A stretch of 64,000 bases of DNA from an uncultured Candidatus Saccharibacteria bacterium (lineage in GTDB: Bacteria; Patescibacteriota; Minisyncoccia; Phycocordibacterales; UBA918), in NCBI GenBank assembly GCA_964502345.1, contig CAZCWH010000001.1:167-64166 (forward strand), read 5' to 3'. A program made the position numbers and the translations under genes. The notes beneath the pieces are model-generated. The model did no database searches, was not told the DNA's origin, and saw only the letters and a program-made list of their open reading frames with translations. Shown here in pieces: positions 4,426-63,342 of the stretch; the stretch's first letter is position 1; each line of letters opens with the position of its first letter.

Positions 4426-4455
4426 GCTCCGTCACTGCGGGGCTTTTCTTTATTC
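4426..4455 (+). terminator. intrinsic terminator-like hairpin (GCUCCG/CGGGGC with one G-U wobble) followed by TTTTCTTTATTC
   Basis: stem 4426-4431/4438-4443, 6-nt loop, T-rich tract 4444-4455. The pairing only works in the plus-sense RNA. It overlaps the last codons of tgt. Confidence 0.35.
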
Positions 4456-5643
4456 GGAAAGAATCCTTTCTCTTAGTTTTTTTGTGAAGTTGACGATGAC
4501 GTACAGATTATGAAGAGATGCAAGGTGAGCACCAAGCATTTCATTAGCTCTAAAAAGATGCGCAAGATACGCTCGCGTATAGTGGGTACATACGTAGCAA
4601 TCACATCCTTCATCTGGCTTTCCTAGATCGTTCGTGTACTGTGCATTTTTTAAATTGAGTTTTTTGATTCCCTCATGTGTATGCACATAGATTGCTCCTG
4701 TGCGTGCGATGCGCGTAGGAGCTACACAATCAAATGTGTCACAACCCATACGTACCCCTGCTTCAATATCCTCAGGCTCACCAATACCAAGAAGGTGTCG
4801 AGGCTTGTCTTGAGGGAGTACCTCATTTACAGCTTTCAAAGATCCACCCAAATCCTCCTTACTAAATGAACCGCCAATACCAAATCCATCGAAGTCCATG
4901 TCACTTAAAATGCGTGCACTCTCTTTTCGTAAATCTAAGTGTCGTCCTCCCTGCACCACTCCATAAAGTCCCTGTTTTTGCAGTGCTTCATAGTTACGCT
5001 TATGCGCAAGAATAGAGCGCTTTGCCCAACGATGCGTCCGATTCATCGCTTCTTCTTGGTACTCCCGGGGTGCGGTAGGAGACGTGCATTCATCAAACGC
5101 AACGATGATATCAGCACCTATACTATGCTGAATTTCTATGGAGCGTTCTGCGGTGAACCGATGCATACTCCCATCAATGTGTGATGTGAATGTGACCCCA
5201 TCTTCATCGATGACACAGAGTTTACCGTGGCTCTCCGCAAGTTCTTTTGAGTACACCGTGAGCCCTTCGTCAGCATCTACGGTTTCACCTTTTGCAAACT
5301 TTGTTACTCCTTTACCAAACGCAGCGCCAAGTGAAAATACTTGAAACCCTCCTGAGTCAGTCATCGTTGGGAGCTTCCAGTTAGAAAATGAATGCAGTCC
5401 CCCTGCTTTTTCTATGAGCTCATGCCCAGGCTGAAGATAGAGATGGTAGGTATTTGCGAGCGCCACCTGTGCACCAACATACTCCTCAAGGTCCTCAGGT
5501 TTGAGTGATTTCACCGTCCCCTTTGTACCCACAACAACAAAAGCAGGTGTCAGAATATCACCATGGGGTGTATGAATAACACCAGCCCGTGCAAGAGTGC
5601 CTGGCTGGTGCTTTACTACTTCAAACGTGATGGGTGAAGCCAT
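4450..5643 (-). CDS. tgt: queuine tRNA-ribosyltransferase (tRNA-guanine transglycosylase)
   Basis: 397 aa with a TGT fold and a C-x-C-x2-C...H zinc site (CDCYVCTHY...H). Its ATG overlaps the stop of the upstream FKBP gene as TAATG. Confidence 0.93.
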   Translation of the reverse strand: MASPITFEVVKHQPGTLARAGVIHTPHGDILTPAFVVVGTKGTVKSLKPEDLEEYVGAQVALANTYHLYLQPGHELIEKAGGLHSFSNWKLPTMTDSGGFQVFSLGAAFGKGVTKFAKGETVDADEGLTVYSKELAESHGKLCVIDEDGVTFTSHIDGSMHRFTAERSIEIQHSIGADIIVAFDECTSPTAPREYQEEAMNRTHRWAKRSILAHKRNYEALQKQGLYGVVQGGRHLDLRKESARILSDMDFDGFGIGGSFSKEDLGGSLKAVNEVLPQDKPRHLLGIGEPEDIEAGVRMGCDTFDCVAPTRIARTGAIYVHTHEGIKKLNLKNAQYTNDLGKPDEGCDCYVCTHYTRAYLAHLFRANEMLGAHLASLHNLYVIVNFTKKLRERILSE

Positions 5644-6188
5644 TAATTAATCTTCACGAGTTCGATAGCGAAAATAAGTGTTGATCCTGCTTCAATTGGA
5701 CCTACTTTCCTCTCTCCGTAGCCAAGTGATGGTGGTATTACAAGAATTCGCTGACCACCAACCTGCATCCCAAGAATTCCTTTTTCCCAACCCTGAATGA
5801 CTCGATGATCACCAACGGTGAATGTGAAGGGTTCACCACGAACGTATGAATTATCAAACTGCACACCACTTTGTGTTGAACCAATATAGTGTGCAACAAC
5901 CGTGTCACCTTCCTTGACCTCGGGACCAGTTCCTATCTTTATGTCATCAACAACAAGCTTTTGTAGCTTTCCATCAACAGTTGCCGCATTTCGTAGTGCC
6001 TTCTCGAGATCGCCAGTACCCACTTCAGTATCAGCCTCAACTGCTACAAGCGCTGCCTGAGAGTCTCCTTCGAGCGTTGCGACAGTTGCATTAATGTCTG
6101 TCTGGAACCTAAGAAGACTAAGGGCTACTGCCATGACTGCAACACTCAAAAAGATGCCAATTACCTCAAATTTATTTACTGGACTCAT
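5643..6188 (-). CDS. FKBP-type peptidyl-prolyl cis-trans isomerase, membrane-anchored or secreted
   Basis: N-terminal hydrophobic segment, then an FKBP_C domain (VVAHYIGSTQSGVQFDNSY...FTVGDHRVIQGWEKGILGMQVGGQRILVIPPSLGYG). Confidence 0.85.
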   Translation of the reverse strand: MSPVNKFEVIGIFLSVAVMAVALSLLRFQTDINATVATLEGDSQAALVAVEADTEVGTGDLEKALRNAATVDGKLQKLVVDDIKIGTGPEVKEGDTVVAHYIGSTQSGVQFDNSYVRGEPFTFTVGDHRVIQGWEKGILGMQVGGQRILVIPPSLGYGERKVGPIEAGSTLIFAIELVKIN

Positions 6189-6235
6189 ATATTCATTGAT
6201 TGATTATCGAACCATAATAGCCGTGTTTCCCAAAT

Positions 6236-6470
6236 ATGCAACCTAAAGCGCAACGACCAAAGGGAGTATGCGTTTGGAAGTACTCCTGTGGTACAACCTA
6301 TTTTTTAAGGAGCCTCTGGCGACTATAAAAATGGAAGTACTCTTGTGGCACAACCTAAAGCGCAACGACCAAAGGGAGTATGCGTTTGGAAGTACTCCTG
6401 TGGTACAACCTGATTTTTAAGGAGCCTCTGGCGACTATAAAAATGGAAGTACTCTTGTGGTACAACCTGA
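6236..6470. repeat. tandem repeat, 2 x 112 bp. Each unit is two ~56-bp half-units ending GGAAGTACTCYTGTGGYACAACCT.
   Basis: direct inspection: acctaaagcgcaacgaccaaagggagtatgcgtttggaagtactcctgtggtacaacctRattttttaaggagcctctggcgactataaaaatggaagtactcttgtggY occurs twice head-to-tail, between the CapA-like and FKBP genes. Confidence 0.8.
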
Positions 6471-6547
6471 TAAGAGTTTGAATTTATGAAAACTATCTTA
6501 GAACCTGAACAGCCTCTGTAAGACAGCACTCGATATCCGTTCAATGC

Positions 6548-7576
6548 TTAATCACGCGACACCACAAAGTACGGGTGACCTACTTCGTTATACTTTCCAT
6601 CGGTAATTTTTTCGAAGCGTTTATAAATCTCCATTCGCTCATCACCGGTCACAACATAGGGTTGACTACGGGAATCCTTACTTGAAAATGGGATAAGCGT
6701 ATAGATGACTCGATCTCTCTCAAACATAAGATCTATGCCTAATCCCTTTTGAACTTCATCACTGAAGTACTGATCAAAAATGAAATTTCCAAGGGAATAG
6801 AAAATTGGTTTGTCATTATATATTTCAATATCTTGGATAACATGGGGGTGATGCCCAATAACTGCATCAATACCGTTATCTATTAGGAGATGCGCTAGAC
6901 CCTCCTCCTTATAACTATGGAGTAATTCGTACTCATTACCCCAATGAACAAAAACGATCTGAAAATCTGATTTCTGCTTCAACTCAGTAACTACTGCCTG
7001 GAGCGCGTCAAGATCCGGTTCTGTAAAGAGCGTATGCATAAACAAGAAACCAATCGTAGTATCACCCACTTTTTTTATACTCGTGGATGAGGATGTAACC
7101 GTGAGTGGATGACCAAAACACGAGATACCATACTGTGAGCATACTGATAGCGTATTTTCATAACTCTGAGGACCATAGTCGAGTGCATGATTATTAGCTA
7201 GCGAGAGGACATCAATTCCAGCATTATGTAACTCCTGCATATACTTTTCTTCTATGGAAAAGGTCATTCCAAGAGATTGTGTTGGGATATGATTCTGTGG
7301 AATCGTGCCCTCAAAATTTCCCACTGCAAGATCAGCACTCCTAATGAGTTCTTCGACTTTTCTAAATGAATATGATGTACCGTTTTGCTCACCAAGGACT
7401 TCAACATTCCTACCAAGCATTATGTCTCCAACAAACAGCACATGAGCATCGTCGTAGGTCTCCACAAATTGCCAAAACTCAAATGAAGGGATGCGAAATT
7501 CAGGAAAATTGACTACTGTAAGATGGACACCCGCTCCAACAATTGCAACAAAAAGTATGATTAGAAAAAATTTCAC
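6548..7576 (-). CDS. CapA/PgsA-family metallophosphatase (poly-gamma-glutamate/capsule synthesis protein-like)
   Basis: 342 aa with an N-terminal TM. Calcineurin-like motifs (VGDIMLGR, GNFE, ANNH, GHHPH, LGNF) are typical of PGA_cap. Confidence 0.7.
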   Translation of the reverse strand: MKFFLIILFVAIVGAGVHLTVVNFPEFRIPSFEFWQFVETYDDAHVLFVGDIMLGRNVEVLGEQNGTSYSFRKVEELIRSADLAVGNFEGTIPQNHIPTQSLGMTFSIEEKYMQELHNAGIDVLSLANNHALDYGPQSYENTLSVCSQYGISCFGHPLTVTSSSTSIKKVGDTTIGFLFMHTLFTEPDLDALQAVVTELKQKSDFQIVFVHWGNEYELLHSYKEEGLAHLLIDNGIDAVIGHHPHVIQDIEIYNDKPIFYSLGNFIFDQYFSDEVQKGLGIDLMFERDRVIYTLIPFSSKDSRSQPYVVTGDERMEIYKRFEKITDGKYNEVGHPYFVVSRD

Positions 7577-11904: not shown

Positions 11905-12935
11905 TGTTTTGTAAGATCTATGTCGTGATGGCGGGGGTCTGAACGAGATTCACGTATGCGAAGTGGAATCGGATCAGAATCATCCTGTATATCGTCGTCA
12001 AGATATTTTTTATGCACAAAGAAAGCAAGTACGACTACAAGAAGTGCAAGCGCTGCAAAAATACTCAGAAGCATTTTGAGCGGTATCACATAAAAAAATG
12101 AAGTGTCCTGGACAGAAGCTCGCTCAGTATTTCCATATTCAATATTGAGAAATGCTTTATATTTGCCAAAAAGTCCATCGACAGGTACCTCTACCGCAAA
12201 CTCCTTCTCCTCGCCTGCATTGATTGTCTGATTATCAGTGTTTACTGGAAGTGAAGCAACTTCAACCCCTTTGCTGTCATAGAAGATGATTTCGCCTTTG
12301 GGTGTAAGTGATTCATCTCCTGGATTTTTGATTGTGTACACTGCTGCCTGATTGCCCGCTCCCGTAATAAATCTATCAATTATAAACTTGCCTAGTTTTA
12401 GAAATTCAACCTTATTGTCTGCTATTGTTGCATTAATAATACTTCCAGGAGCATCACCACGCTTTACCTGCTCTGCTGCTTCATCTCTGTTTCTTCCATA
12501 CCCAAATCCTAAAAACGCATGGTATTCGCCAGGGACTGGACTCGGATGAACTCTGAATGTGACTTCTAAGGTTTTTGTCGCACCAATCATAAGATTAATC
12601 CCTTGCCTGCTGAACTCCATCCAGGAAGAGAGGGACGCGGAACGATCACTCTCAATTGGAGAATGATACTCTTCAATCATTCCCCCTTCATTGACAGAGA
12701 TGTTATTGATGCTCGGGTAGATGGTGACCGGAGAATCACCCGTGTTTGTAATGGTTATGATCTTAGTTACAATGTCGCGTGCTTCTAGATCTAAATCAAT
12801 GACTAGTGGAGAAACAAGGTAAGACGGAGCCGCGAAGCTGACCAAAGGAAATAGCAGTGAAAGACAAAAAAGTGTTATCGGAATCCTTGTTACCATACGC
12901 ACAGATAGTATCATACTAAAAAATTGGTACCGCAA
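11901..12935 (-). CDS. DUF916/CscA-like cell-surface protein with C-terminal TM and an acidic/basic tail
   Basis: signal peptide, beta-rich ectodomain, then TM (LLSIFAALALLVVVLAFFV) plus a charged tail. It lies immediately downstream of the 2471-aa giant gene with a 20-nt overlap. Confidence 0.45.
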   Translation of the reverse strand: MRYQFFSMILSVRMVTRIPITLFCLSLLFPLVSFAAPSYLVSPLVIDLDLEARDIVTKIITITNTGDSPVTIYPSINNISVNEGGMIEEYHSPIESDRSASLSSWMEFSRQGINLMIGATKTLEVTFRVHPSPVPGEYHAFLGFGYGRNRDEAAEQVKRGDAPGSIINATIADNKVEFLKLGKFIIDRFITGAGNQAAVYTIKNPGDESLTPKGEIIFYDSKGVEVASLPVNTDNQTINAGEEKEFAVEVPVDGLFGKYKAFLNIEYGNTERASVQDTSFFYVIPLKMLLSIFAALALLVVVLAFFVHKKYLDDDIQDDSDPIPLRIRESRSDPRHHDIDLTKQ

Positions 12936-15900
12936 TATACCTTATACTTGTGCCATATACACCAGCTGGCTGGGACTGACGGACCTTGAGTTTAAAGACG
13001 ATATCGGTTATTTCATTTGTCACGGGGACTGAACTATATGCCACCTCATCGAGAGTTGTGGTACTCATACGAGCGTACGTATCAATGGCAGAAAATCGTG
13101 CATTGCTGTTATATAGTGTGTCATCACCCGAATGGTAACCAGCACAACCAGTAGCCTCAGTGGAGCAACCTGTACTCCAATCTATTGGACTTGCATTTGT
13201 TCCTGTAATAGGTGGAATAATTGCTTCACTTCCACTCATGAAGTCATCTGTTGCTATCATAAAAATTCGATATCCTTCGGTAGCATTTGTAGTAACTCGC
13301 AACCGTTGAACTGCCTCTACATCTGAACCAATCGGAAGTATGCCAAATGGGATTGTTGTTGTACCAGAAGCAACGTCTGTCGTAATACCCTCAGTCGCAG
13401 TCGACGACGCAACGCCACCAACTGAAAATACGAGTGATGCTCCTTCAGTTACAAGTGACGGATACTGTTCACTATTGTTAGTAGACACGGGGACTCCCTG
13501 CACTACATCGTAAAGTCTAAAGTAGTACACAAGGTTTACGCGAGGACCTGCAGATTGAATGGTAAATTCGTATTCTGTAGCATCACCACCTTCATGCCGA
13601 AAACCACTCAACGCTTGAGGGGATTCATTATGCGTTCCACAACCGTTCCCAACACCCGCGACGCAACTGTCTGCATCAGAAAGTGTTCCGGTCGTTATTT
13701 CACTGTTATCGGTACCACCTCCATCTGCATAGCACCAGGTTGAAGTTGCTGTACACGTACTTGTTGCGACCACATCTGCAACAGTTTCGAAATTTGCATA
13801 CTCTGAGTACTGCAGTTTAAAACGCACATCATCACGTGATATATTTTTTACCTCTTTCACTACAACTCGGAGCTTGACCGCTTGACCATTTGCAATATCT
13901 ATTGGTGCAACATTTTCTATTGCAAGTGGTGTAACGGGTGTTTCATTATTTTCATCGTCGTACCAGCGCCAATTTTGCGTTTTGGGAGTAAAACTTGCAG
14001 TTCTAATTTTTGGATGTTGGTAATAATTTCCTAATAGTTCCCCATTTGTTTCAACCATTCGGAAACAGTAGTATGTTTCTGCATTTGCACCATTTTGTTC
14101 AACAATCCAATCATACTCAATGGTCTCATTCACCTGCACTGCATGCGCATTAGCATCAGTATCATTTTCTTCCTCAAGCGTACCAGCTACATCCGAAATG
14201 GAAGGAAGTACGAGATCGCCGAGCGTAGGAGGGTCTCCGGAAAGAAGCGTACCATCAGTTGTTCCTGTGGCATTAAAACCCCTCCAGATTGTACTTGAAG
14301 CAGCGTTCCCAAGTGTGTTCCAGTTTGCTTCACTAATTGCACTACATGTTGAGACCATTGGAGCATACTGGAGCTTAAATGCCTTAGTGCCAGCTGGCCA
14401 TGTGGCATTGAGTGCCTGAAGAGACATGCGAATACGAATCCGTTCTCCTTCACCTAGTGGTTCATCAGTAGCAGTTAAGGTTGTGTCTTCACCAAGATCT
14501 TGACCCCCGACAGGCCACGGGTCTGTTGGCTTGAGTGCATTGTTATCAACAAACAATTGATAATGGAGTTGCTCGAGTGCAAGCCCTGCAGTTGGCCATT
14601 CAACAATCTCCGCACGATACGTAAGCACTGAACCAGTATTACTGCGCCAGATTTCAAATGCAGTAGATGAAGCAATTGTTATACCTGCTATCGCTCGCGG
14701 GAAAATCGTAGTAGTGAGTGACGAACGAGCATTTGCAAATATTGATGCGTTTGTAAGGTCAGTCAGAACCTTTCCATTCGGAAGCGTGACGCTTACCGTA
14801 AGCGGAGCTGTGCCACCGGTCGTAAAACCATTTGACTGAGTGACTTCCATAGCTCCAGCTGCAGTTTGTGTATTTTCAATGATCCATGCGACTGAAGTCT
14901 GTCCAGACGGGGTTGTCGCACCAGCTTGAAGAAAGTACGACACAGAGCCAACACTAGAAAGCCACACCTCAGCACCAAATTCATCTGTTCCATTGAGTAG
15001 TCGATTATTTCTTTTCTGTGTATGTATAAACGTACGAGTTAGATTACCGAGGGCTGTAATTGCCTCAGTTTCAGTAACACCAGCTGCACTGTAGGTGTGT
15101 TCACTTCGTTGAACAACCCAATTCGGACCTTTAAATTCAACTACGGCATAACTTACCCGTACTGCATCCGTGCCGGTTGCTCCTCGCCAGAAATATGGTG
15201 TATCGTTATTTGCATCCCATGCTGAAGTACTCGGTAATGCATCATAGTTTGCCGAACCAGTATCAGGGCTTTGTTGCCCCGTAATAAATACAACTACATC
15301 ATCATCGTTTGTGATACCAGAAACTATACTGCCCGTAGCACTCGTAGAAGCTACTCCATACGCAATAAATGTTTGATCATGCACTATCATTTCATTATCG
15401 GAACCAGGCTCTCCAATAAATTCAATAATTTCCCAATCAACTCGTGTCGATGTTGCGACTCCTGTTCGTGCAATGGTCACTGAAGTCATGATATTTGAAG
15501 GGTTGAGTATATACGCTGTTGTGTTTGTTGCGTTTTGGGCTGCGGTATTCCCCGAAGCGTGACCAGCACCAGTAATACCGATATTTGTGATACGAATAAA
15601 TGCACTCGTTGAAGCGTTTGGTGTTATGTAGTGCACTCCAGCGACAAGTGTTGTTGAGGTAGCTCCCATGAGTATGGTTGCAGAGTTACGCTGGATTTCA
15701 AAATCTCGCTCAGGAGATGTGGTGAGCTCTGCATATTTTGAATACGCGTTAAGCTCAACACTCGAAGCAGCAAGCCTAAAACAATAGGTTATATCATTAC
15801 CCGCATCGACTGTTTGCTCAATACTAAACTCTGCTTCGAGGTACTCCGAACTCGTAATTGATGTAGTTGCAATGATTGATGATGTGTCCTTTATTGCACT

Positions 15901-18900
15901 GTTTGGTGAGAGGAAACTAGAGTTTTCATTTGATACCCCGCCCCCCAGTATAGAAATGTCTGTACTGTCATCACCATCCGTTAAATTAATCGAATCGTAC
16001 ATCTCCCAGGCGCCGCCAGTCGCACCCACATCAGTCCATGATGTTACAGCGCTACAGGTTGTGATTTTTGCTCCATACTCTAATCGTAATGCTCTGGCTA
16101 ATGAAGTAACAGTACCTTCGTTTGAAACTTGTAACCTCAAACGTACGGGAGTTGTCTGTGCAACATTTGAAATTGCCGTATCTTCCGCGTCACCCGAGAG
16201 CGAAGTTGCTGTTGTCTCATCTCCATTATCACTTCTCCAGTGGTAGTGGGTCTGTGTAAGGACTGCTCCTAAAAGTGTCGTTGACCCATTCATATCACGA
16301 GTAATTGAAGGACTTACTGAGCCTCCTCCAGAGACAATTAAATTTGATGATGGGCTTTCCATGATGATATCGATAGTTTCATCATTTTGTGCAGTGTCAG
16401 TCGTATCAAGTACGGTGTACAAACACATGGTCGACGTCGTCGAAATCGAGACTGACCCTGTAAATGTTGAGGTCCCATTGGGTCCTGAAAATCCATCAGT
16501 ATCTGTTGAACCAAACTGGGCTTCCCCTCCCGTATAACTATCACTTGCACAATCATAGGGAGCAGTGGTATCCAAATCATAATGAAGTTCTATATTGTCT
16601 AGATCGGTTTGTGCATCAACAGTCCCATTTTCTGAAATAGTAATGCTGGTAACATTGCGAGTGCTGACATTCTCAGTAATGACAAAAGCGCTCCCCACAT
16701 AGAAATCTGTTGCTGGTATTGTTGTCGTTGCTGTCTGACTTGTGGTTGCAATGGTCACGAGGACATCTGAAGAAATATTTGCACGCGGTATAACTGAATA
16801 CGCTGAGAGCGCTTGTCCTTGATTGGTAACTCTAAAACAGTATGTATTCCCTTCTACCGCGGTTGTTGAAGCTACTATTGAATACTCTAATTCAACAAAC
16901 TCTGATGATGACAGAGTAATTTGGCCGGTTTGAGATACAGTATCTTTTACACCACCATTTGGAGTAAGGAAGGTAGCATTTTCATCTGTCACAGCACCAT
17001 TGATTCCTGATGCTATATTTGTAGTATCTGCACCATCAGTTAAATTTAGTGTGTCGACCATATCAAAATCACCTCCTGCTGAACCAATGTCAGTCCATCC
17101 TGTTGCTGCTTCGCACGTGCTTGGATTTGGCGCATACTCCAAACGATACTGCATTGCTGGAGTTGAACTACTGCCCTCATTTGATACCTCTACACGGAGA
17201 CGTGTGGTTGATCCTTGTCGCATCGCAGTCAGTGAGGTGTCCTCAACTCCGCTCGTCTTTGAAGTGGCAGTCGTTTCATTTCCATCATCATTGCGCCAAT
17301 GATAGTGAACGAGAGTAGGAGTATCGTTATACACCAATGTTGTTCCAGAAAGATCTTGTGAAGCACTTGGCCCGGCACTACTACTCGTAACGGTCACATC
17401 GCTCGCTGGATTTGCAATAGAAATTTCAATTGTTGAACTACTGTCCGCTGAATCAAGCACGTCCATGACGGGATATACACAAAGTGCTTCAGTCGCATCT
17501 ACATTAACAGTCGAACCAGTAAACCCTGATGTACCATCTGCGCCAGAAAAACCATTACCATCCGTTGAACCAAACTGACTTTCACTTCCTCCATACGTGA
17601 CACTTGCACAATCGTATGGCGACACTGTATCGAGCTCATAAAACAACTTTACGTTAGCAATATCTGCCGAACCATCGATTGTTCCAGATTCAGTAATGGT
17701 AATTCCAGTAATATCATATGCTTGCGTTTCATCAGTATTGTAAAGACTAAACACACTACCGACATAGACATTACTCGTGCTTGCGTAGAGTGACGCAATT
17801 TGAGACCCAGTAGTTGCAATTGCAGTGCTTGGTAAATTTGCGAGTGTAGCACCATAGATATCATCGTCTGTATTATCAAACCATGTAACATACAAACGTT
17901 CACTATTGACGAATCCTACATCAACTCCATAGATATCATCTGGACTAGTATTTACTGGACCTTGTTCATATTCCCATGTAGTCATCCCATCAGTTGATCG
18001 TTTCCATAGTACATTCGCTGTGTTGGCTGTGTTTGCTGTGGCCTGTGCGCTATACGCTACATAGACGTCGTCATTGCTTGTATCCAGTGCAATGGCAACA
18101 TTTGTAAGACCAAGTACGACAGATGCACTCACATTAGTTTTTGGAGTCCACGTACCCGCGGAATAGACTGCTGTACGTAGCACGTCGTTCCCTGGTGTAG
18201 CATTATCTGCAATGTACGCGAGATATACATCTCCAGTCGTTGGACTCACAGTAACAGCCATACCTACGTCATATGTCGCATTATCGATTGCGTTTGAATC
18301 AATAGTCGTAGACGCCGCATCCCACGAGCCAGCTCCATTATTCCAAACTTTACTTTCAATATTTTCTGCAGCGGCGCCGACATCGCGATGAATTGCAATA
18401 ATGTTGCCCCCTGGAAGTGGGGCGAGTATTGCATAGTTGTTAGTGAGCCCAAAGGGGTTAGTTCCTGTTTCTGACCAACTTCCCGCAAGATTACAACTCG
18501 CAGAACATTCAACTACAAATGAATCAGATGCATCAATACTGCTTGCATAGATCGTCCCATCAGTTCCCTTCGTTATTGAAATCTGGTTGGTACCTACAGT
18601 AATCGTGCCTCCTTGAGCGTTTGTCGTACTTACCGGTGCACTACCCATAAGCAGTGTGTCGCTCGTCGTATCAAGCCGGTTGTACCAAACATCATCAGGG
18701 TTAGTATCGAGTGTCGCTATATGAATGTAATCTCCTGTATCTCCGGGCGTCCACTGGTCATACCATACTTGAATAGAGATACAGTCGACCTGAGCATCAA
18801 CCGTTGTGGTACCACTCCATGTCTGACCTCCATCAGTTGTTTTGCGGTACACACAGTATCCGGGTGCGTCAACAAAAAATTTGTACCCTGTCTGATCATC

Positions 18901-20331
18901 GGTAAAGACGGTTTGGGAGCCGGCTAACACATGTGATGTACCTGCGGTACTCACATTGCTATCTATTGTGTACTGGGTGTAGGAGTCATTACTATTGATT
19001 TCGTCAAAGGCAGTTGTGCGTACATGGATCCCTGGAAAAATATCAGCGAGAGTTTCTCCAAAAATATCATTATCTGTGTCATCAAACCACGTTGCATAAA
19101 TCCGTTCATCACTGACCAGATTTAAATTGATGCCGTACATATCATCAGCGCTCGTATTGAGTGGCCCCTGCTCATATCCCCAACTTGCCATGTCATCAGT
19201 CGACTTGCGCCAGTAAATATTTCCAGTCGCTAGTGTGAGAGGTGTTGTACGAGCACTATATGCTACGTACACATCGTCATTAGAGGCATCAAGTGCGATA
19301 GCAACATTCGTGATTCCTTTCTCACTATACCTCACAACCTCTTTTGTCGAGGTCCACGTACCACTCGAGTATCGTGCAGTGCGAATCTGATCGTCAGCTC
19401 CAAGGGTCGTATTACGTGCGATATATGCCAAATACACATCTCCTGTCGTCGGACTCACCGTAACAGCCATTCCAACATCATACGTAGTGTTATCTGTTGC
19501 ATTTGCATCTATGGTCGTCGATGCAGCGTCCCATGAGCCTGTGCCATTGTTCCAAACCTTACTCTCAATATTCTCTGCAACCGCAGCAACGTCACGATGA
19601 ATTGCTATGATGTCGCCACCTGGGAGAGGAGCGAGTATTGCATAGTTATTGGTAAGCCCAAATGGATTTGTACCGGTCTCAGACCAACTTCCTGCGACAT
19701 TACAACTTGAAGAACATTCAACAACAAATGAATCGGAGGCATCTATACTGCTTGCATAGATTGTTCCATCTGTTCCCTTCGTAATAGAAATTTGGTTTGC
19801 ACCTGCCGTAATGGTTCCACCCTGCCCCGTAGTCATACTAACTGGTGAGCTCCCCAAGAGGAGTGTATCCCCATTGGTATCAAGACGGTTATACCAAACA
19901 TCATCTGGGTTAGTATCGAGTGTAGCTATATGGATGTAAGTTCCAGTATCCCCTGGTGTCCACTGGTCGTACCAGACTTGCACTGAGATACAGTCAACCT
20001 GTGCATCGACTGTTGTTGTAGCGCTCCAGGTCTGCCCTCCATCCGTTGTTTTACGGTACACACAGTATCCTGGAGCATCAACAAAGAATTTGTATCCTGT
20101 TTGATCATCAATAAATACCGTTTGCGAACCCGACAGTATGTGCGACGTACCAACGGTACTTGCATCAGAATCAATAGTTGCCTGTGCAGCTTCAGCAGTA
20201 GGTACTATCCTCGTTAATAGTGCATCACCAAAACTGCTAAGCAAAAAAACGAGTATAAGAATAGACGCAACAGTCTTCTTCACTCGCAAGAGTTTTTTAA
20301 ATACAATACCTCCCATTGTCACCATTATCAC
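12916..20331 (-). CDS. giant secreted surface protein (2471 aa). It has two tandem BNR/Asp-box sialidase-like beta-propellers, repeated ~190-aa HYHWRxDDG...YCFR modules, and a conserved C-terminal module.
   Basis: signal peptide. Asp-box motifs TTDGGQTW and STDGMTTW occur in two ~390-aa units that are ~85% identical at the DNA level (about 17780-18980 and 19010-20180). The C-terminus ...GTSIRYIAVPIF is shared with the 378-aa protein. Confidence 0.85.
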   Translation of the reverse strand: MIMVTMGGIVFKKLLRVKKTVASILILVFLLSSFGDALLTRIVPTAEAAQATIDSDASTVGTSHILSGSQTVFIDDQTGYKFFVDAPGYCVYRKTTDGGQTWSATTTVDAQVDCISVQVWYDQWTPGDTGTYIHIATLDTNPDDVWYNRLDTNGDTLLLGSSPVSMTTGQGGTITAGANQISITKGTDGTIYASSIDASDSFVVECSSSCNVAGSWSETGTNPFGLTNNYAILAPLPGGDIIAIHRDVAAVAENIESKVWNNGTGSWDAASTTIDANATDNTTYDVGMAVTVSPTTGDVYLAYIARNTTLGADDQIRTARYSSGTWTSTKEVVRYSEKGITNVAIALDASNDDVYVAYSARTTPLTLATGNIYWRKSTDDMASWGYEQGPLNTSADDMYGINLNLVSDERIYATWFDDTDNDIFGETLADIFPGIHVRTTAFDEINSNDSYTQYTIDSNVSTAGTSHVLAGSQTVFTDDQTGYKFFVDAPGYCVYRKTTDGGQTWSGTTTVDAQVDCISIQVWYDQWTPGDTGDYIHIATLDTNPDDVWYNRLDTTSDTLLMGSAPVSTTNAQGGTITVGTNQISITKGTDGTIYASSIDASDSFVVECSASCNLAGSWSETGTNPFGLTNNYAILAPLPGGNIIAIHRDVGAAAENIESKVWNNGAGSWDAASTTIDSNAIDNATYDVGMAVTVSPTTGDVYLAYIADNATPGNDVLRTAVYSAGTWTPKTNVSASVVLGLTNVAIALDTSNDDVYVAYSAQATANTANTANVLWKRSTDGMTTWEYEQGPVNTSPDDIYGVDVGFVNSERLYVTWFDNTDDDIYGATLANLPSTAIATTGSQIASLYASTSNVYVGSVFSLYNTDETQAYDITGITITESGTIDGSADIANVKLFYELDTVSPYDCASVTYGGSESQFGSTDGNGFSGADGTSGFTGSTVNVDATEALCVYPVMDVLDSADSSSTIEISIANPASDVTVTSSSAGPSASQDLSGTTLVYNDTPTLVHYHWRNDDGNETTATSKTSGVEDTSLTAMRQGSTTRLRVEVSNEGSSSTPAMQYRLEYAPNPSTCEAATGWTDIGSAGGDFDMVDTLNLTDGADTTNIASGINGAVTDENATFLTPNGGVKDTVSQTGQITLSSSEFVELEYSIVASTTAVEGNTYCFRVTNQGQALSAYSVIPRANISSDVLVTIATTSQTATTTIPATDFYVGSAFVITENVSTRNVTSITISENGTVDAQTDLDNIELHYDLDTTAPYDCASDSYTGGEAQFGSTDTDGFSGPNGTSTFTGSVSISTTSTMCLYTVLDTTDTAQNDETIDIIMESPSSNLIVSGGGSVSPSITRDMNGSTTLLGAVLTQTHYHWRSDNGDETTATSLSGDAEDTAISNVAQTTPVRLRLQVSNEGTVTSLARALRLEYGAKITTCSAVTSWTDVGATGGAWEMYDSINLTDGDDSTDISILGGGVSNENSSFLSPNSAIKDTSSIIATTSITSSEYLEAEFSIEQTVDAGNDITYCFRLAASSVELNAYSKYAELTTSPERDFEIQRNSATILMGATSTTLVAGVHYITPNASTSAFIRITNIGITGAGHASGNTAAQNATNTTAYILNPSNIMTSVTIARTGVATSTRVDWEIIEFIGEPGSDNEMIVHDQTFIAYGVASTSATGSIVSGITNDDDVVVFITGQQSPDTGSANYDALPSTSAWDANNDTPYFWRGATGTDAVRVSYAVVEFKGPNWVVQRSEHTYSAAGVTETEAITALGNLTRTFIHTQKRNNRLLNGTDEFGAEVWLSSVGSVSYFLQAGATTPSGQTSVAWIIENTQTAAGAMEVTQSNGFTTGGTAPLTVSVTLPNGKVLTDLTNASIFANARSSLTTTIFPRAIAGITIASSTAFEIWRSNTGSVLTYRAEIVEWPTAGLALEQLHYQLFVDNNALKPTDPWPVGGQDLGEDTTLTATDEPLGEGERIRIRMSLQALNATWPAGTKAFKLQYAPMVSTCSAISEANWNTLGNAASSTIWRGFNATGTTDGTLLSGDPPTLGDLVLPSISDVAGTLEEENDTDANAHAVQVNETIEYDWIVEQNGANAETYYCFRMVETNGELLGNYYQHPKIRTASFTPKTQNWRWYDDENNETPVTPLAIENVAPIDIANGQAVKLRVVVKEVKNISRDDVRFKLQYSEYANFETVADVVATSTCTATSTWCYADGGGTDNSEITTGTLSDADSCVAGVGNGCGTHNESPQALSGFRHEGGDATEYEFTIQSAGPRVNLVYYFRLYDVVQGVPVSTNNSEQYPSLVTEGASLVFSVGGVASSTATEGITTDVASGTTTIPFGILPIGSDVEAVQRLRVTTNATEGYRIFMIATDDFMSGSEAIIPPITGTNASPIDWSTGCSTEATGCAGYHSGDDTLYNSNARFSAIDTYARMSTTTLDEVAYSSVPVTNEITDIVFKLKVRQSQPAGVYGTSIRYIAVPIF

Positions 20332-26471: not shown

Positions 26472-26826
26472 AAAAAACCCATCTCGCTCTAAAGTGACCC
26501 AATGTCACTTTAGAGGAGGTTCTCGATAGTTTAATCCGCCTGAGGGCGGAGAGAACTATCATAGAACCAGAACAGCTTCTGTAAGAAGGTGGCTAGCCAC
26601 CACGAGCTTGGCTTTTCTTTTGAGCAAATCCATTTGCTCAAAAGAAAAACCCGTCTCGTGGTGCGACCCAATTTCTAAGGAGCGAAGCGACTATAGAAAT
26701 GGAAGTACTCCTAGATCAGCTCCGAACATCGCAGAATTCAAACATAGTGTAGCGGGTGGGATAAAAGAAAAACCCGTCTCGTGGTGGGAGATAGGGTTTT
26801 TCTAAACTCTTGTACTGTTGCTTGTT

Positions 26827-28537: not shown

Positions 28538-29662
28538 TCACCCGGTCCAGTTGAAGAGAAGGATTGAGAAGTCTTCGAGACTGACTCGACCATTTTGATT
28601 AATGTCTGCTGGAGGATTCGAGTTTCCACCTGGCGTATTCCACCAAAAAATCAGGATTGAAAAGTCGATTAGATTTACCTTCCCGTCACGATTGAGATCC
28701 GAGTTACTCGTCGGCCTCCCCTCAACTCCTACAAATAGTGACAGTGCCGTACCATAGGTACTTTCTGTTTTGAGGTTGCCTGTTCCTTCAATGAATCGTG
28801 CCTTTGCGGTGTGTGTATCTGCGGTGACGCTCGATGTATTGAAATCAACACTCCAATTTCCATTCGCGTCTGATGTTGTCCTCAGAGTTTGCTTTCCATT
28901 ATCAATTGATACTTCAACTGCAACACTTGGAACTGTTTGCCCACGCAAAATTATTGTCTCACCGGGATTAGGAGCATTATTGGAAGCACGTATAGTTGGT
29001 GGAATTAGCACACCGTTTACGTTTGTCACTGCACCCTGCGTTATATCAAACGTAGTACTGAATGTTGCAGATCGTGTCCCCGCAGTATCATTTGCCCAAA
29101 AGCTAAGTGATGCTGTACCAGGTTCAGTATCTGTATTAAATAAAAATTCTCCCCTACTATTTGTACGCACAGTCCCCACTGACTCACCATCAATTAAAAT
29201 AGTAACGGTGACATTCGGATACGCTTTCCCCTGCACAGTCACTTGCGTATCGCCAAGTTCGGTATCTCGTCCTCCTGACCCTGAATTTCCACCACCACCG
29301 GTCGATCCTCCTCCTGCATCTGCTTCTTCTTCTGTACAGTCTGCTGCACAAAAATCACCATCGGTATTGTTACCATCATCACACTCCTCTGAATAAATCG
29401 TTTGTAAAATAGCATCACCACAATATGGTGCCCACCTACAAATATCAGTGCACTGTCTTCCTGCGATTGTTGTGCTGTATTCCCCAGTATCTGTTGGGAT
29501 ATCACAGCTTTCTCCTGCATTGACAATAAGGTCACCACAAATACTAATGAGTAGCGAAGTCGTCGCAATACTTGATTGAGACGAAGCAACAAGAGGAACA
29601 AACATGGTGAGCAAACCACATATGCTTAGAATGAAATGATACGCAGGTCGTTTAGCGTACAT
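28538..29662 (-). CDS. secreted dockerin-bearing protein. Myxococcus-type Cys-rich repeats, a Gly-rich linker, two Ig-like domains, and a C-terminal dockerin.
   Basis: CGDxxxxxGEECDDGNNTDGDFCAADC-type repeats. The C-terminus DLNRDGKVNLIDFSILIFWW...DINQNGRVSLEDFSILLFNWTG is a dockerin duplicated-segment motif. Confidence 0.7.
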   Translation of the reverse strand: MYAKRPAYHFILSICGLLTMFVPLVASSQSSIATTSLLISICGDLIVNAGESCDIPTDTGEYSTTIAGRQCTDICRWAPYCGDAILQTIYSEECDDGNNTDGDFCAADCTEEEADAGGGSTGGGGNSGSGGRDTELGDTQVTVQGKAYPNVTVTILIDGESVGTVRTNSRGEFLFNTDTEPGTASLSFWANDTAGTRSATFSTTFDITQGAVTNVNGVLIPPTIRASNNAPNPGETIILRGQTVPSVAVEVSIDNGKQTLRTTSDANGNWSVDFNTSSVTADTHTAKARFIEGTGNLKTESTYGTALSLFVGVEGRPTSNSDLNRDGKVNLIDFSILIFWWNTPGGNSNPPADINQNGRVSLEDFSILLFNWTG

Positions 29663-36885: not shown

Positions 36886-37019
36886 TCCCCAATCGCATAG
36901 AACGTGACCAGAAAATAATGAGCGTAGCGATTATATTTTCTGAGTCCATCTTCATGAGCTTTTCCTATGCCTCATGAAGATGCCGTAATCAAACGCTCAA
37001 TAAAATATGGAAGTAGTAT

Positions 37020-61030: not shown

Positions 61031-61053
61031 AAAAAAGCACCCCGTGCTTTTTT
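61031..61053. terminator. bidirectional intrinsic terminator AAAAAAGCAC-ccc-GTGCTTTTTT
   Basis: perfect 10-nt complementary arms with a GC core, flanked by an A-run and a T-run. A degenerate copy sits at ~28321-28345. Confidence 0.55.
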
Positions 61054-61084
61054 AGCCCGTCCAGTTGAAGATCATGATTGAAAA
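61052..61084 (-). pseudogene. orphan remnant of a dockerin C-terminus (encodes FSIMIFNWTG-stop) without an upstream ORF
   Basis: reverse-complement reads ttt tca atc atg atc ttc aac tgg acg ggc taa. That is 10/10 aa identical to the end of the 61171..63042 protein and ~70% nt identical to the 3' ends of both dockerin genes. The frame is closed a few codons upstream. Confidence 0.4.
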
Positions 61085-61170
61085 ATTAAATGAAGAAATG
61101 AAAGTAATGAATATTCTGAATTTATGTCCCGATTTTCCCCTTTCAAGGGAAAATCGCTGGACCACGCCAA

Positions 61171-63042
61171 TTATCCAGTCCAATTAAAGATCATGATCGA
61201 GAAGTCCGTCAAAGATACCTTTCCGTCACGATTGATGTCTGCAGGTGGATTTGAAGCACCTCCGTTTGAATTCCACCAGTAGAGAAGAATAGAAAAGTCG
61301 ATTAGATTTACCTTGCCGTCACGATTCAGGTCTGATGTTTGTGGTACTTGCGCCTGTGCACCTACTCCGTAATATGTAAAGTCAGAAAAATTAGTCGAGA
61401 CACCTCCATCCTGGCGAGCTTTTGCCCTTACCTTGTACGTACCTGTTTGAAAACCTGAAGTACTTAAATCGATTGACCACGCACCATTTGCGTCGGATGT
61501 AGCGGTGAGTGTTTTAAGACTGGCACTTGATTTATCATTTTGATTTTCAATAGTAATGGTAGCGTCTGGAATCGCAAATCCTGATATTTGGACTATACTA
61601 TTAGGATCGACAGGGTTTGGGGTCACCTTGATTGAAGGCATTACATTAATGTTAGAAAGTGTCGAACCACGAGCCCCTGAGACGGTAAATGTTGTCGAGA
61701 AAGTACTTGAACGAGTGCCGTTTTTATCTACAGCATACACACCAAAGGTATATACGCCACGGGCAATAAGATCAATGAGTACAGAAAATTCTCCTGTTGT
61801 CCCTGCTGTATCCTGCTCAGCAATCTGACCGTCGACGAGTACATACACCGTACTACGCGGGAAGGCGTACCCATTAACAATAACCCTACCATCGCCACTC
61901 TGGTACACTTTCTCTGACCCCTCCAGTCCACCTCCGCCATCGTCTCCACCACTTGATGATCCTGTACCCCCTCCGCCACCTCCACCTCCGCCTCCGCCAG
62001 AAGAGCCACCACTCGAGTCATCACCACCGGAAGGATCTCCCCCACCATCATCTACATCCCCCGAACCTTCTCCTGTACCAGAGCCCTCTCCTTCATCTTC
62101 ACCCTCTGCTCCTGGTGTTCCTTCCGGATATTCAGGCACAGTAAAGGTGAGTACATAGTCATCAATATTTACGTTCCCTTCATCGTCAATACAACGAATG
62201 AAAAACGTGTAGGTGGTACTTGTGGACACAGATATTGTTTCAGGATGAATCGTCGTAAAATTTGAAGTAAACTCAGACCCCATTGAAAAGTATGGCGTGC
62301 CTGAGGCAGTGCTATATCGACATTTCGAAAACTCATCAGTCTCAACGGAAATTTGCACTGCAAGTGAAGTACCTGAAATAGTTCCTGAAGGAGCCCCATT
62401 GAAGCGGACTGGTGGGTCAGTCTCCGTCGTGTCAAGATTAGGAACCGAGACTCTATCGACAGTAGCCACATGTCCTCTCACTCGCTCATCAGTACCTCCA
62501 CCTCCTGCCTCAATATGAAACTCAAATGTACCTGTTGCTGATGGATTAAGTAAACCAACATCTGTAGTAGTCGCATTTGTTGTGTGTGAACCAATAAGTA
62601 GACGAATGTATCTATTTGCTGGAATCCCAGTGGTCGAATTGAGTGTCACTTCAATATTCCCTGAAGTCCCAGTCGTAATTGCCACACCATCATCCACGGC
62701 ATCAGGAGTCACTGTTGCTGTACGAAGCGTATACCCTGACTCTGCTGAAGCTGATACATACATTTCAACATTATCAATATCAAAATCAGATACAGGTACA
62801 GTAAACGCTCCATCCTCAGGTATGAATCGTACATAGCCACCAGGTGGAATAGCAACGGTCGTCTTAAACTGTATGGTGTGGTTTGAATACTCACTCGGAA
62901 CAGAGTTAGAAAGTGTGTCCTTGTACTCGTGTATTGTTGCAGCAAAAACTGCATGTACTACAAATAAAAAAGACAAAACGCTCAGTGCAACAAAAGCGAG
63001 TTTAAATAAATCTTTATATAAAAAACGGCCCCATACATCCAT
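61171..63042 (-). CDS. secreted dockerin-bearing protein (623 aa). N-terminal head domain, long Gly/Ser/Asp linker (G13 run), two Ig-like domains, and a C-terminal dockerin.
   Basis: signal peptide. The C-terminal ~200 aa are paralogous to the 28538..29662 protein and end DLNRDGKVNLIDFSILLYWW...DINRDGKVSLTDFSIMIFNWTG. Confidence 0.7.
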   Translation of the reverse strand: MDVWGRFLYKDLFKLAFVALSVLSFLFVVHAVFAATIHEYKDTLSNSVPSEYSNHTIQFKTTVAIPPGGYVRFIPEDGAFTVPVSDFDIDNVEMYVSASAESGYTLRTATVTPDAVDDGVAITTGTSGNIEVTLNSTTGIPANRYIRLLIGSHTTNATTTDVGLLNPSATGTFEFHIEAGGGGTDERVRGHVATVDRVSVPNLDTTETDPPVRFNGAPSGTISGTSLAVQISVETDEFSKCRYSTASGTPYFSMGSEFTSNFTTIHPETISVSTSTTYTFFIRCIDDEGNVNIDDYVLTFTVPEYPEGTPGAEGEDEGEGSGTGEGSGDVDDGGGDPSGGDDSSGGSSGGGGGGGGGGGTGSSSGGDDGGGGLEGSEKVYQSGDGRVIVNGYAFPRSTVYVLVDGQIAEQDTAGTTGEFSVLIDLIARGVYTFGVYAVDKNGTRSSTFSTTFTVSGARGSTLSNINVMPSIKVTPNPVDPNSIVQISGFAIPDATITIENQNDKSSASLKTLTATSDANGAWSIDLSTSGFQTGTYKVRAKARQDGGVSTNFSDFTYYGVGAQAQVPQTSDLNRDGKVNLIDFSILLYWWNSNGGASNPPADINRDGKVSLTDFSIMIFNWTG

Positions 63043-63342
63043 GGTACTTGCTTATTGTACCGTACGTAACCACTGATTATTGACTCCCGGTGCGTATAAA
63101 TCCATCCTCAGTGCTCATTTGTATAGAACATGCTTCCCTGAGCAAAGTTCGAGATAAAAGAAGCATTAGGAAAAGCATTATCGCTAATATTCTTATATTT
63201 CAGTTATTTTGAGACGTCTAGCCCTTTCATCATGAACGATGAAAGGGAGACGGAAGTTCGCAATAGTCGCTACTTCTTACAGAAGCTGTTTAGGTTGTTG
63301 CAAGTTTGTCTCCAGAGTCACAAACTTGCTAACAACCTCTTG

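Follow-up and report, generated by a model that had tools for sequence, protein, structure and literature searches.

With modest confidence, we interpret the tandem array at positions 6239 to 6468 of the window (the whole 64-kb stretch of DNA that we analyzed) as four units of a non-autonomous, REP/MITE-like mobile element that is specific to Patescibacteria and folds on its + strand. We call this element E. As judged by comparison among genomes, E behaves like a miniature mobile repeat, and the array most likely has no designed function at the FKBP-tgt locus. Patescibacteria have very small, streamlined genomes that are thought to be poor in repetitive and mobile DNA. In the literature that we searched, no such repeat family is described for CPR bacteria or Patescibacteria, and the E family has no match in Rfam. 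It accounts for a class of long intergenic regions in Patescibacteria genomes and points to an associated enzyme or RNA activity.

Tandem Repeats Finder reports the array with a period of 112, 2.1 copies, 97% matches, and no indels, and with sub-periods of 55 and 57 at 66 to 70% matches. A 25-nt core, TGGAAGTACTCYTGTGGYACAACCT, is matched exactly at 6275, 6332, 6387, and 6444 (in 0 of 100 shuffles). Based on these two results, the 2 × 112-bp tandem repeat of ~56-nt units that had been proposed from the sequence alone is real. The same proposal described the units as 56-bp half-units. The periodicity is right, but the units are not halves of one unit: the covariance model R1 (described below) matches whole units, so the alternating units are two full variants of E, which we call A and B. 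The 24-mer GCGACTATARAAATGGAAGTACTC is found exactly at 6319, 6431, and 26687 and in none of the shuffles; this block had correctly been noticed as common to the array and the intergenic region at 26.6 kb, where the third copy is the solitary one in Table 1. Unit 3 equals unit 1 base for base over 6356-6405 (from the T of CAACCT to the end), and a fifth CAACCT stands at 6463-6468, directly after unit 4. The solitary copy starts with GCGACC, as is typical of the family. Its 3' arm breaks off after GAAGTACTCCT, and its stem, AUUUCUA/UAGAAAU, differs from that of units 2 and 4 by a compensatory change. The probable degenerate copy at 36.9 kb keeps GTGACC and the G·A hairpin AGAAAAUAAUGAGCGUAGCGAUUAUAUUUUCU, and its 3' arm has decayed to GAGTCCATCTTCATGAG, which fits neutral loss. 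By R1, the 64-kb window holds 5 to 6 copies, all on the + strand.

Table 1. Positions of the E copies and of adjoining features in the window
Feature	Positions	Strand	Match or other basis	Layout	Hairpin
Unit 1, B variant	6239-6293	+	R1 match 6238-6293, E value 8e-9	CAACC, hairpin, arm GGAAGTACTCCTGTGGTA	Lower stem AAGCGCA/UGCGUUU; upper ACGACC-AAA-GGGAGU, tandem G·A
Unit 2, A variant	6294-6350	+	R1 match 6297-6348, E value 0.004; exact core	CAACC, hairpin, arm GGAAGTACTCTTGTGGCA	Lower stem AUUUUUU/AAAAAU; upper AAGGAGC-CUCUG-GCGACU
Unit 3, B variant	6351-6405	+	R1 match 6350-6405, E value 1.3e-7		
Unit 4, A variant	6406-6462	+	R1 match 6408-6461, E value 1.3e-5		
Solitary A-type copy	26663-26717	+	R1 E value 1.6e-4		
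Degenerate sixth copy (weak assignment)	36900-36956	+	R1 hairpin-only match 36912-36939, E value 0.07		
Putative FKBP-tgt native promoter	6214-6241	-	TTGCAT (6241-6236), 16 nt, TATTAT (6219-6214)		
79-nt segment, array to PGA_cap stop	6469-6547	+	Missing in relatives; holds X motif 6491-6523		

Many copies of E exist outside the window. An exact scan of metagenome contigs with GCGACTATARAAATGGAAGTACTC yields 32 loci with unrelated flanks, and a looser pattern (GCGAC-N15-45-GAAGTACTCYTGTGGTG), run over species-representative genomes, yields at least 120 genome loci, often with several contigs of one genome matched. Among the matches listed, wherever a record title gives a taxon, it is a lineage of Patescibacteria (Kaiser-, Nomura-, Lloyd-, Taylor-, and Vogelbacteria, Paceibacterota, and Parcubacteria), and some E-bearing MAGs are labeled merely "bacterium" or "uncultured Candidatus Saccharibacteria." Judged by these titles, E is confined to the Paceibacteria/Parcubacteria group of Patescibacteria. 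The looser pattern has no match in 2.9 million viral contigs, a shortened 21-mer has one viral match that looked like chance, and phage records searched by blastn do not match the array spacer. The exact window core with ACAACC has no match in the genome contigs. R1 was built from 12 copies, none of them from the window. It detects 119 copies at 100 loci, as well as each of the five copies in the window, and can be used for annotating E copies.

To compare filled and empty sites, both flanks of each copy were joined and searched against all loci. There are six filled/empty pairs, including L074/L119, L090/L119, L106/L088, and L101/L138. In the reciprocal pair L067/L142, the spacer is the same but E sits at a different position in each of two related genomes, and each genome is empty at the other's site. 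Copies are also nested. In L010, one copy lies inside the apical loop of another, and the latter is uninterrupted in L014 and L031, while in L137, one E copy interrupts the 3' strand of another. Five of the six pairs show the exact insertion of CGAC...GTGGTG behind a G, and the target is not duplicated. The ends of E, CGACC and GTGGTG, are not inverted repeats. On the target side, there is a G at -3 in 80 of 119 copies (the G at -1 is ascertained by the search pattern). Since E itself ends in GTG, an insertion behind a copy already in place would give a head-to-tail array in which the units differ, and such arrays are found in the window (B-A) and at L020, L033, L034, L091, and L102. Locus-specific complementary flanks with at least 7 contiguous pairs surround 24% of copies, versus 8.7% of permuted flank pairs. 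This could reflect either insertion into hairpin loops (terminators, T-arms) or selection for an outer RNA stem.

The boundaries of E are sharp, and the flanks carry ~0 bits of information. Counting against the mobile-element reading, no transposase or recurrent gene stands beside E copies: ORF clustering finds none within 2.5 kb of ~150 E loci, and the 685 neighboring ORFs form only small clusters of housekeeping genes (LysRS, BipA, GreA, RF1, and ThrRS). The orientation classes relative to the nearest ORFs number 33, 25, 23, and 23. Across 165 copies, E in tandem spacers shows no preference for the 3' or the 5' end of genes, by which a terminator or 3'-UTR role was rejected. Wherever E seemed to lie within an ORF, the ORF was short and spurious or had been extended too far at its N terminus, and an intron-like element in genes was dismissed.

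Across 178 distinct copies, E consists of (G)CGACC, 1 to 3 bases, a hairpin, one variable base, and the arm GAAGTACTCYTGTGGTG. The hairpin has a 7-bp lower stem of any sequence, then a U·U or a one-base bulge and one pair, and at its top tandem G·A/A·G, 2 bp, and a triloop. Two apical classes occur, GAGC-GAA-GCGA and CGACC-NNN-GGGAG; in the window, the B units have the apex ACGACC-AAA-GGGAGU and the A units have an A/U stem with the apex AAGGAGC...GCGACU. The 3' arm is 17 nt long (GAAGUACUCYUGUGGUG), and 16 of its 17 positions are invariant in >96% of copies, a value that is partly circular because copies were found through the arm. A near-invariant 17-nt arm across distant lineages is unusual for selfish repeats, although part of the invariance is ascertainment.

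This structure is supported by covariation in the lower stem. In the 119-copy alignment, each of its seven pairs has 15 to 43 sequences changed on both sides and few that are unpaired, and 88% of the cells of the eight-pair lower helix are paired. The covariation value for the whole 16-pair structure is 0.39, compared with 0.108 for shuffled alignments; none of 500 shuffles reaches it, and slid partners give at most 0.08. Two apical pairs covary as well. The G·A and A·G between the apical pairs are present in ~49 of the 65 copies that align there, and the U·U is present in 71 copies. The 5' C·ACC and the terminal GGUG can also pair, and this pairing varies too little to give a covariation signal. 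Evidence for the structure is comparative: single-sequence folding energies are unremarkable (+ strand z between +0.5 and -1.9). A mini-hairpin inside the arm (N-GA-AGUAC-UC-Y) shows no covariation (P = 0.8) and was discarded. An H-type pseudoknot of AGGAG with CUCYU was given up as well, because other variants place AGGAG in the upper stem of the hairpin (GGAGC-GAA-GCGACU, where the tandem G·A occurs) and the loop of many copies has only 3 nt.

Wobble pairs differ between the strands. At the apical pairs there are 11 G·U versus 0 A·C, and at the closing pair (C/U-G) the counts are 20 versus 2; taken together, these wobble pairs are confined to the + strand (31 versus 2). The + strand folds better in 119 of 165 copies and the - strand in 40. 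The strand-specific wobble and the better folding of the + strand indicate that folding takes place on one strand, which may be RNA or single-stranded DNA.

These results also bear on a different reading, in which E is mainly a structured small RNA, perhaps itself mobile or selfish, for example a new small ribozyme that cleaves itself, or an RNA that binds a protein or acts as a decoy. Transcription would be from the + strand, and the invariant 13- to 17-nt arm and the G·A hairpin would make up the active or bound core. We regard this as possible but doubtful. The strong covariation, the conserved tandem G·A, the one-strand wobble in the upper stem and the closing pair, the better folding of the + strand, the near-invariant unpaired arm, and the enrichment of locus-specific outer stems all favor it. 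A multi-copy, tandem, orientation-independent, tRNA-linked pattern is known for small ribozymes. Hammerhead, twister, pistol, and hatchet ribozymes resemble E in their length of ~50 to 60 nt, in a conserved core with freely covarying stems, in multi-copy or tandem occurrence independent of orientation, and in sharp boundaries. However, E matches none of their Rfam models, and none of their core motifs is visible in it. Rfam finds no family for E in the window or in 36 further E loci, where it finds tRNAs only. Moreover, the flanks hold no promoter or terminator conserved at a fixed distance from E, orientation is random with respect to flanking transcription, the folding energies are ordinary, the hairpin inside the arm does not covary, and wobble pairs in the lower stem lack a strand bias (7 versus 13). 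The suggestion, made from the sequence alone, of an sRNA or riboregulator family is thus partly right, because structure and covariation are present; a riboregulator of the neighboring operon is not supported.

The array lies, as first described, between the stop of PGA_cap (6548-7576, - strand) and the start of FKBP (5643-6188, - strand). TGT (4450-5643) and then UvrB follow downstream of FKBP. The minus strand encodes every large ORF of the window, and the folded strand of E is antisense to every window gene. The closest FKBP homologues (63 to 71% identity) lie in the same order as in the window: AI-2E transporter, PGA_cap, FKBP, TGT, and UvrB. The PGA_cap-FKBP spacer is 359 bp in the window versus 53 to 58 bp in these syntenic relatives, and a covariance search finds no E copy in six loci around the relatives' FKBP genes. 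The assembly of the closest relative has E on a different contig (L096). By this comparison of spacers, the array is an insertion specific to the lineage of the window. The sequence TTGCATATTT...CTATTAT is invariant in an alignment of the window with three relatives that lack E, and everything from there to the PGA_cap stop is extra in the window. It is a plausible -35/-10 pair for FKBP-tgt, with 16 nt between the hexamers. The array adjoins this putative promoter and overlaps its upstream hexamer, so expression of FKBP-tgt could still be affected.

Given this position, the array could be taken for a cis-regulatory device of FKBP-tgt, consisting of tandem promoters, a riboswitch (e.g., preQ1-like), or leader micro-ORFs. 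It is immediately upstream of FKBP-tgt, unit 2 contains one sigma-70-like match on the gene strand (GTGCCA-18-TATAGT), and AAGGAG and ATG are present. Nevertheless, we consider such a device very improbable. The promoter scan gives 2 sites versus 2.3 expected by chance, the structured strand is antisense to the operon, and the relatives have the same operon and keep the same putative native promoter without E. At E, Rfam (including the preQ1 families) gives no match up to an E value of 10; for positions 6100-6650 at that threshold, there are two chance-level matches only, and the whole 64-kb window has no match at gathering score and no tRNA gene. A preQ1 or other riboswitch was considered for the CUAUAAAAA stretch with tgt nearby and was rejected by the lack of an Rfam match and the wrong strand. 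Across the family, random orientation, information-free flanks, and housekeeping neighbors rule out riboswitch, leader, and operator roles.

The sequence-only reading had pointed to AAGGAG and ATGGAAGTACTC, both of which do occur in the array as it described, and had derived micro-ORFs from them. Micro-ORFs are not supported. AAGGAG forms the 5' strand of the upper stem of the hairpin, and it does so in one sub-variant only. The ATG is missing in most family members, which have TTGGAAG, CTTGAAG, ACAAGAAG, or TCGGAAG there, and no reading frame is conserved downstream of its position; neither AAGGAG nor ATG is conserved in the E family. A promoter or riboregulator module for the operon is not supported either, given the antisense strand, the syntenic relatives without E, and the random orientation and position of 165 copies relative to genes.

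Beyond the array, the 79-nt segment holds a motif, X (approximately CAACCTGWACAGCNTCTGTAAGA, with ACAG-NNN-CTGT), that occurs in three long spacers of the window, at 6491-6523 and 26554-26586 on the + strand and at 63273-63313 on the - strand. The first copy matches the second at 91%, and the third is inverted. X is also found at L092:2857, L095:4812, L096:3949, L122:1672, and L139:955, and in several other genomes it is ~60 to 150 nt from E. Its minus strand has a promoter-like CTTACA-16-TATGAT. At 26598-26663, the window has a near-perfect inverted repeat with 32-nt arms that are 88% complementary and 2 nt apart. Its 3' arm, AAAAGAAAAACCCGTCTCGTGGTG, occurs again 100 nt downstream (26763-26786). 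Both copies of AAAAGAAAAACCCGTCTCGTGGTG end in CTCGTGGTG, which resembles the 3' end of E, and the first is immediately 5' of the solitary E copy.

We also weighed whether the array is a degenerate CRISPR-like or TIGR-like guide array. A CRISPR array has direct repeats of 23 to 47 nt and unique spacers of similar length, and here 25-nt conserved blocks alternate with ~30-nt segments. The segments between the four 25-nt cores are two duplicated pairs, and as conserved, self-complementary hairpins they are common to other genomes, which agrees with the view from the sequence alone that this is not CRISPR. TIGR arrays occur in CPR bacteria; their 36-nt unit has two 8- to 12-nt repeats (edge and loop) and ~9-nt spacers, with an adjacent Nop-domain Tas gene (PMC12045711). 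E shares with them the CPR hosts and a regular alternation of conserved and variable segments. In contrast, E has a 55- to 57-nt unit with a 25-nt conserved block and a covarying hairpin, most of its copies are solitary, and Pfam scans of 27 window ORFs find no cas-like domain and no Nop-domain (Tas) gene. We give a guide array next to no credence. A type III toxin-antitoxin RNA does not fit either. In ToxI, identical repeats stand in tandem just before the gene for a toxin endoribonuclease, and the neighbors of the array are PGA_cap and FKBP on the opposite strand, with most E copies being solitary.

E is linked to the 3' flank of tRNA genes. Thirty-five of 165 copies are within 300 nt of a tRNA gene, and 29 of these 35 lie 3' of it, 18 in the same orientation and 11 in the opposite one (binomial P = 1e-4). 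At four loci, the GTGGTG of E overlaps the reverse complement of the tRNA 3' end. Behind at least 11 co-oriented copies, the final 18 or more bases of the tRNA occur again as a direct repeat. In L128, E splits a second copy of the final 50 nt of the tRNA exactly in the T-loop. These tRNA-end duplications may be scars left by integrative elements, or they may have survived insertions into tRNA ends that had been duplicated.

If they are scars, E might mark the ends of tRNA-targeting integrative elements, as a recombination or accessory site by attR whose interior has been lost. In keeping with this, the at least 11 copies stand 4 to 126 nt before a direct repeat that starts in the T-loop, ten tRNA species are involved, and the preference for the tRNA 3' side is strong (29 of 35). 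On the other hand, ~80% of copies, including all window copies, have no nearby tRNA, the inserts between the repeats are only ~100 to 350 nt, no integrase recurs nearby, and the filled/empty pairs and nesting show that E alone is the inserted unit. We consider integrative-element scars improbable. Binding of the tRNA CCA end by UGGUG, as in a T-box, was suggested by the four copies that overlap the reverse complement of a tRNA 3' end and was dropped as well, with no Stem I, downstream gene, or Rfam match.

Several other features were seen at E loci. In L128 (4700-5060, - strand), the leader and trailer of a tRNA-Ile are complementary over ~22 to 26 nt, and the trailer is duplicated after the E insertion. 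A conserved ORF of ~230 aa lies immediately upstream of tRNA-Ile(TAT) in L054 (2052-2756) and L077 (3821-4483), and a third member (L107:621-1283) lies away from tRNA-Ile(TAT); the ORF has weak helix-turn-helix Pfam matches only. On the 3' flank of tRNA-Ile(TAT), E is in opposite orientations in L054 and L077. One E sub-family has a ~60-nt module, GGGGTCGGGRAACGGGAGTTYCCCGTGSAGGAAGG ... AACCGTGG, immediately upstream of E (L126:160-225, L117, L064, L111, L152, L056, L087, and L141), and at several of these loci, a tRNA gene lies on the upstream side and a duplicated 3' piece of a tRNA on the downstream side. Rfam has no family for this module. Insertion of E into a known structural RNA was considered and rejected; around the module only tRNAs were found. 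Another module, GCAAGACCTTGAGCANTTTCTGCG, is immediately before E or the X motif in L096, L122, L149, L139, and L092, which suggests mosaic assemblies of several repeat modules.

Returning to the mobile-element reading, the behavior of E is closest to that of REP or IS200-like miniature elements, although E departs from some of the features that define them. E is a short intergenic imperfect palindrome with many copies per genome, as REPs are. The REP/BIME sequences of proteobacteria, which are mobilized by RAYTs, share with E a size of 20 to 60 nt, strictly intergenic, multi-copy occurrence conserved across related species, an imperfect hairpin with a short conserved unpaired flank, placement singly or in clusters of unlike units, and the absence of terminal inverted repeats and of target duplication. 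However, REP clusters usually alternate in orientation, while E arrays run head to tail. The conserved flank of a REP is a 5' tetranucleotide, whereas E has its 17-nt invariant 3' arm plus 5' CGACC, and the stems of E, unlike those of REP, vary freely between copies within one genome. A RAYT (a Y1 HUH transposase), which is typical between REPs, is found within 2.5 kb of none of ~150 E loci.

The ends of IS200/IS605 elements and the PATEs derived from them (e.g., Nezha) also have neither inverted repeats nor target duplication. As in E, IS200/IS605 ends have a subterminal imperfect hairpin that matters on one strand, the sequence 5' of the hairpin can pair with the last bases (in E, C·ACC with GGUG), this pairing partner sits 10 to 15 nt 3' of the hairpin, and insertion is immediately 3' of a short target. 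PATEs differ in having left- and right-end hairpins and a tetra- or pentanucleotide target, compared with one hairpin and a weak G-N-G target for E. For IS200/IS605 single-strand transposition, an orientation bias relative to the direction of replication is expected. E shows no such bias, with 25 co-oriented and 33 anti-oriented copies in tandem spacers (gene direction being an indirect proxy for replication), although the window copies are all anti-oriented. That the orientation of E does not follow gene direction argues against targeting of the lagging-strand template in the manner of IS200/IS605. A tblastn search with an approximate IS200 transposase sequence gives no match over 1.1 Mb of flanks, so no Y1 transposase is detected nearby.

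Classical MITEs have terminal inverted repeats and a target-site duplication; E lacks both (the duplication is absent in 5 of 6 pairs). No match of the repeat to the terminal repeat of a known IS or MITE was found. BOX (of pneumococcus) and ERIC elements resemble E in being modular and intergenic, with variable numbers of tandem sub-units, predicted stable folding, and no named mobilizing enzyme. Like BOX/ERIC mosaics, E co-occurs with other short modules (the X motif). The differences are that E has no sequence relationship to them, is much smaller, and belongs to another host phylum.

In the mechanism that we propose, the folded strand of E (single-stranded DNA or RNA) would be what a putative trans-acting enzyme recognizes. 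E inserts precisely, with neither terminal inverted repeats nor target-site duplication. New, whole, unrelated units would frequently be placed right behind the terminal GTG of a copy already present. In the window, a B-type and an A-type unit may have come side by side in this way, at the upstream edge of the putative FKBP-tgt promoter, in a spacer that is 53 to 58 bp in relatives, and the 112-bp pair would then have been duplicated recently. Because the two 112-bp halves are near-identical, one recent duplication suffices. More speculatively, and with a probability that we put on the low side, E is a cis-acting module of a not-yet-described transposition or RNA system of Patescibacteria. It may be the substrate of a single-strand or RNA-mediated insertion enzyme that places a 55-nt unit without duplication, and the sites of this putative enzyme may be after G-N-G, in hairpin loops, and beside tRNA 3' ends. 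Alternatively, E may be a small RNA of a new catalytic or protein-binding class and may spread in that form.

The many copies, the insertion polymorphism, and the tRNA 3' flank preference make E a usable marker of genome dynamics in uncultivated Patescibacteria. A caution for annotation is that E arrays should not be taken for CRISPR-like arrays, riboswitches, or micro-ORFs.

Elsewhere in the window are two giant ORFs, of 7248 aa (37020-58766, - strand) and 2471 aa (12916-20331, - strand), with internal repeats of ~2.3 kb and ~5.2 kb. ORFs near them have cohesin, dockerin, Big_13, and fn3 domains, which suggests a cellulosome-like locus for adhesion at the cell surface. At their 3' ends (28538-28702 and 61052-61335), two dockerin-domain genes have a common repeated segment with 75 to 84% identity, and this segment is present twice in tandem near 61.2 kb.
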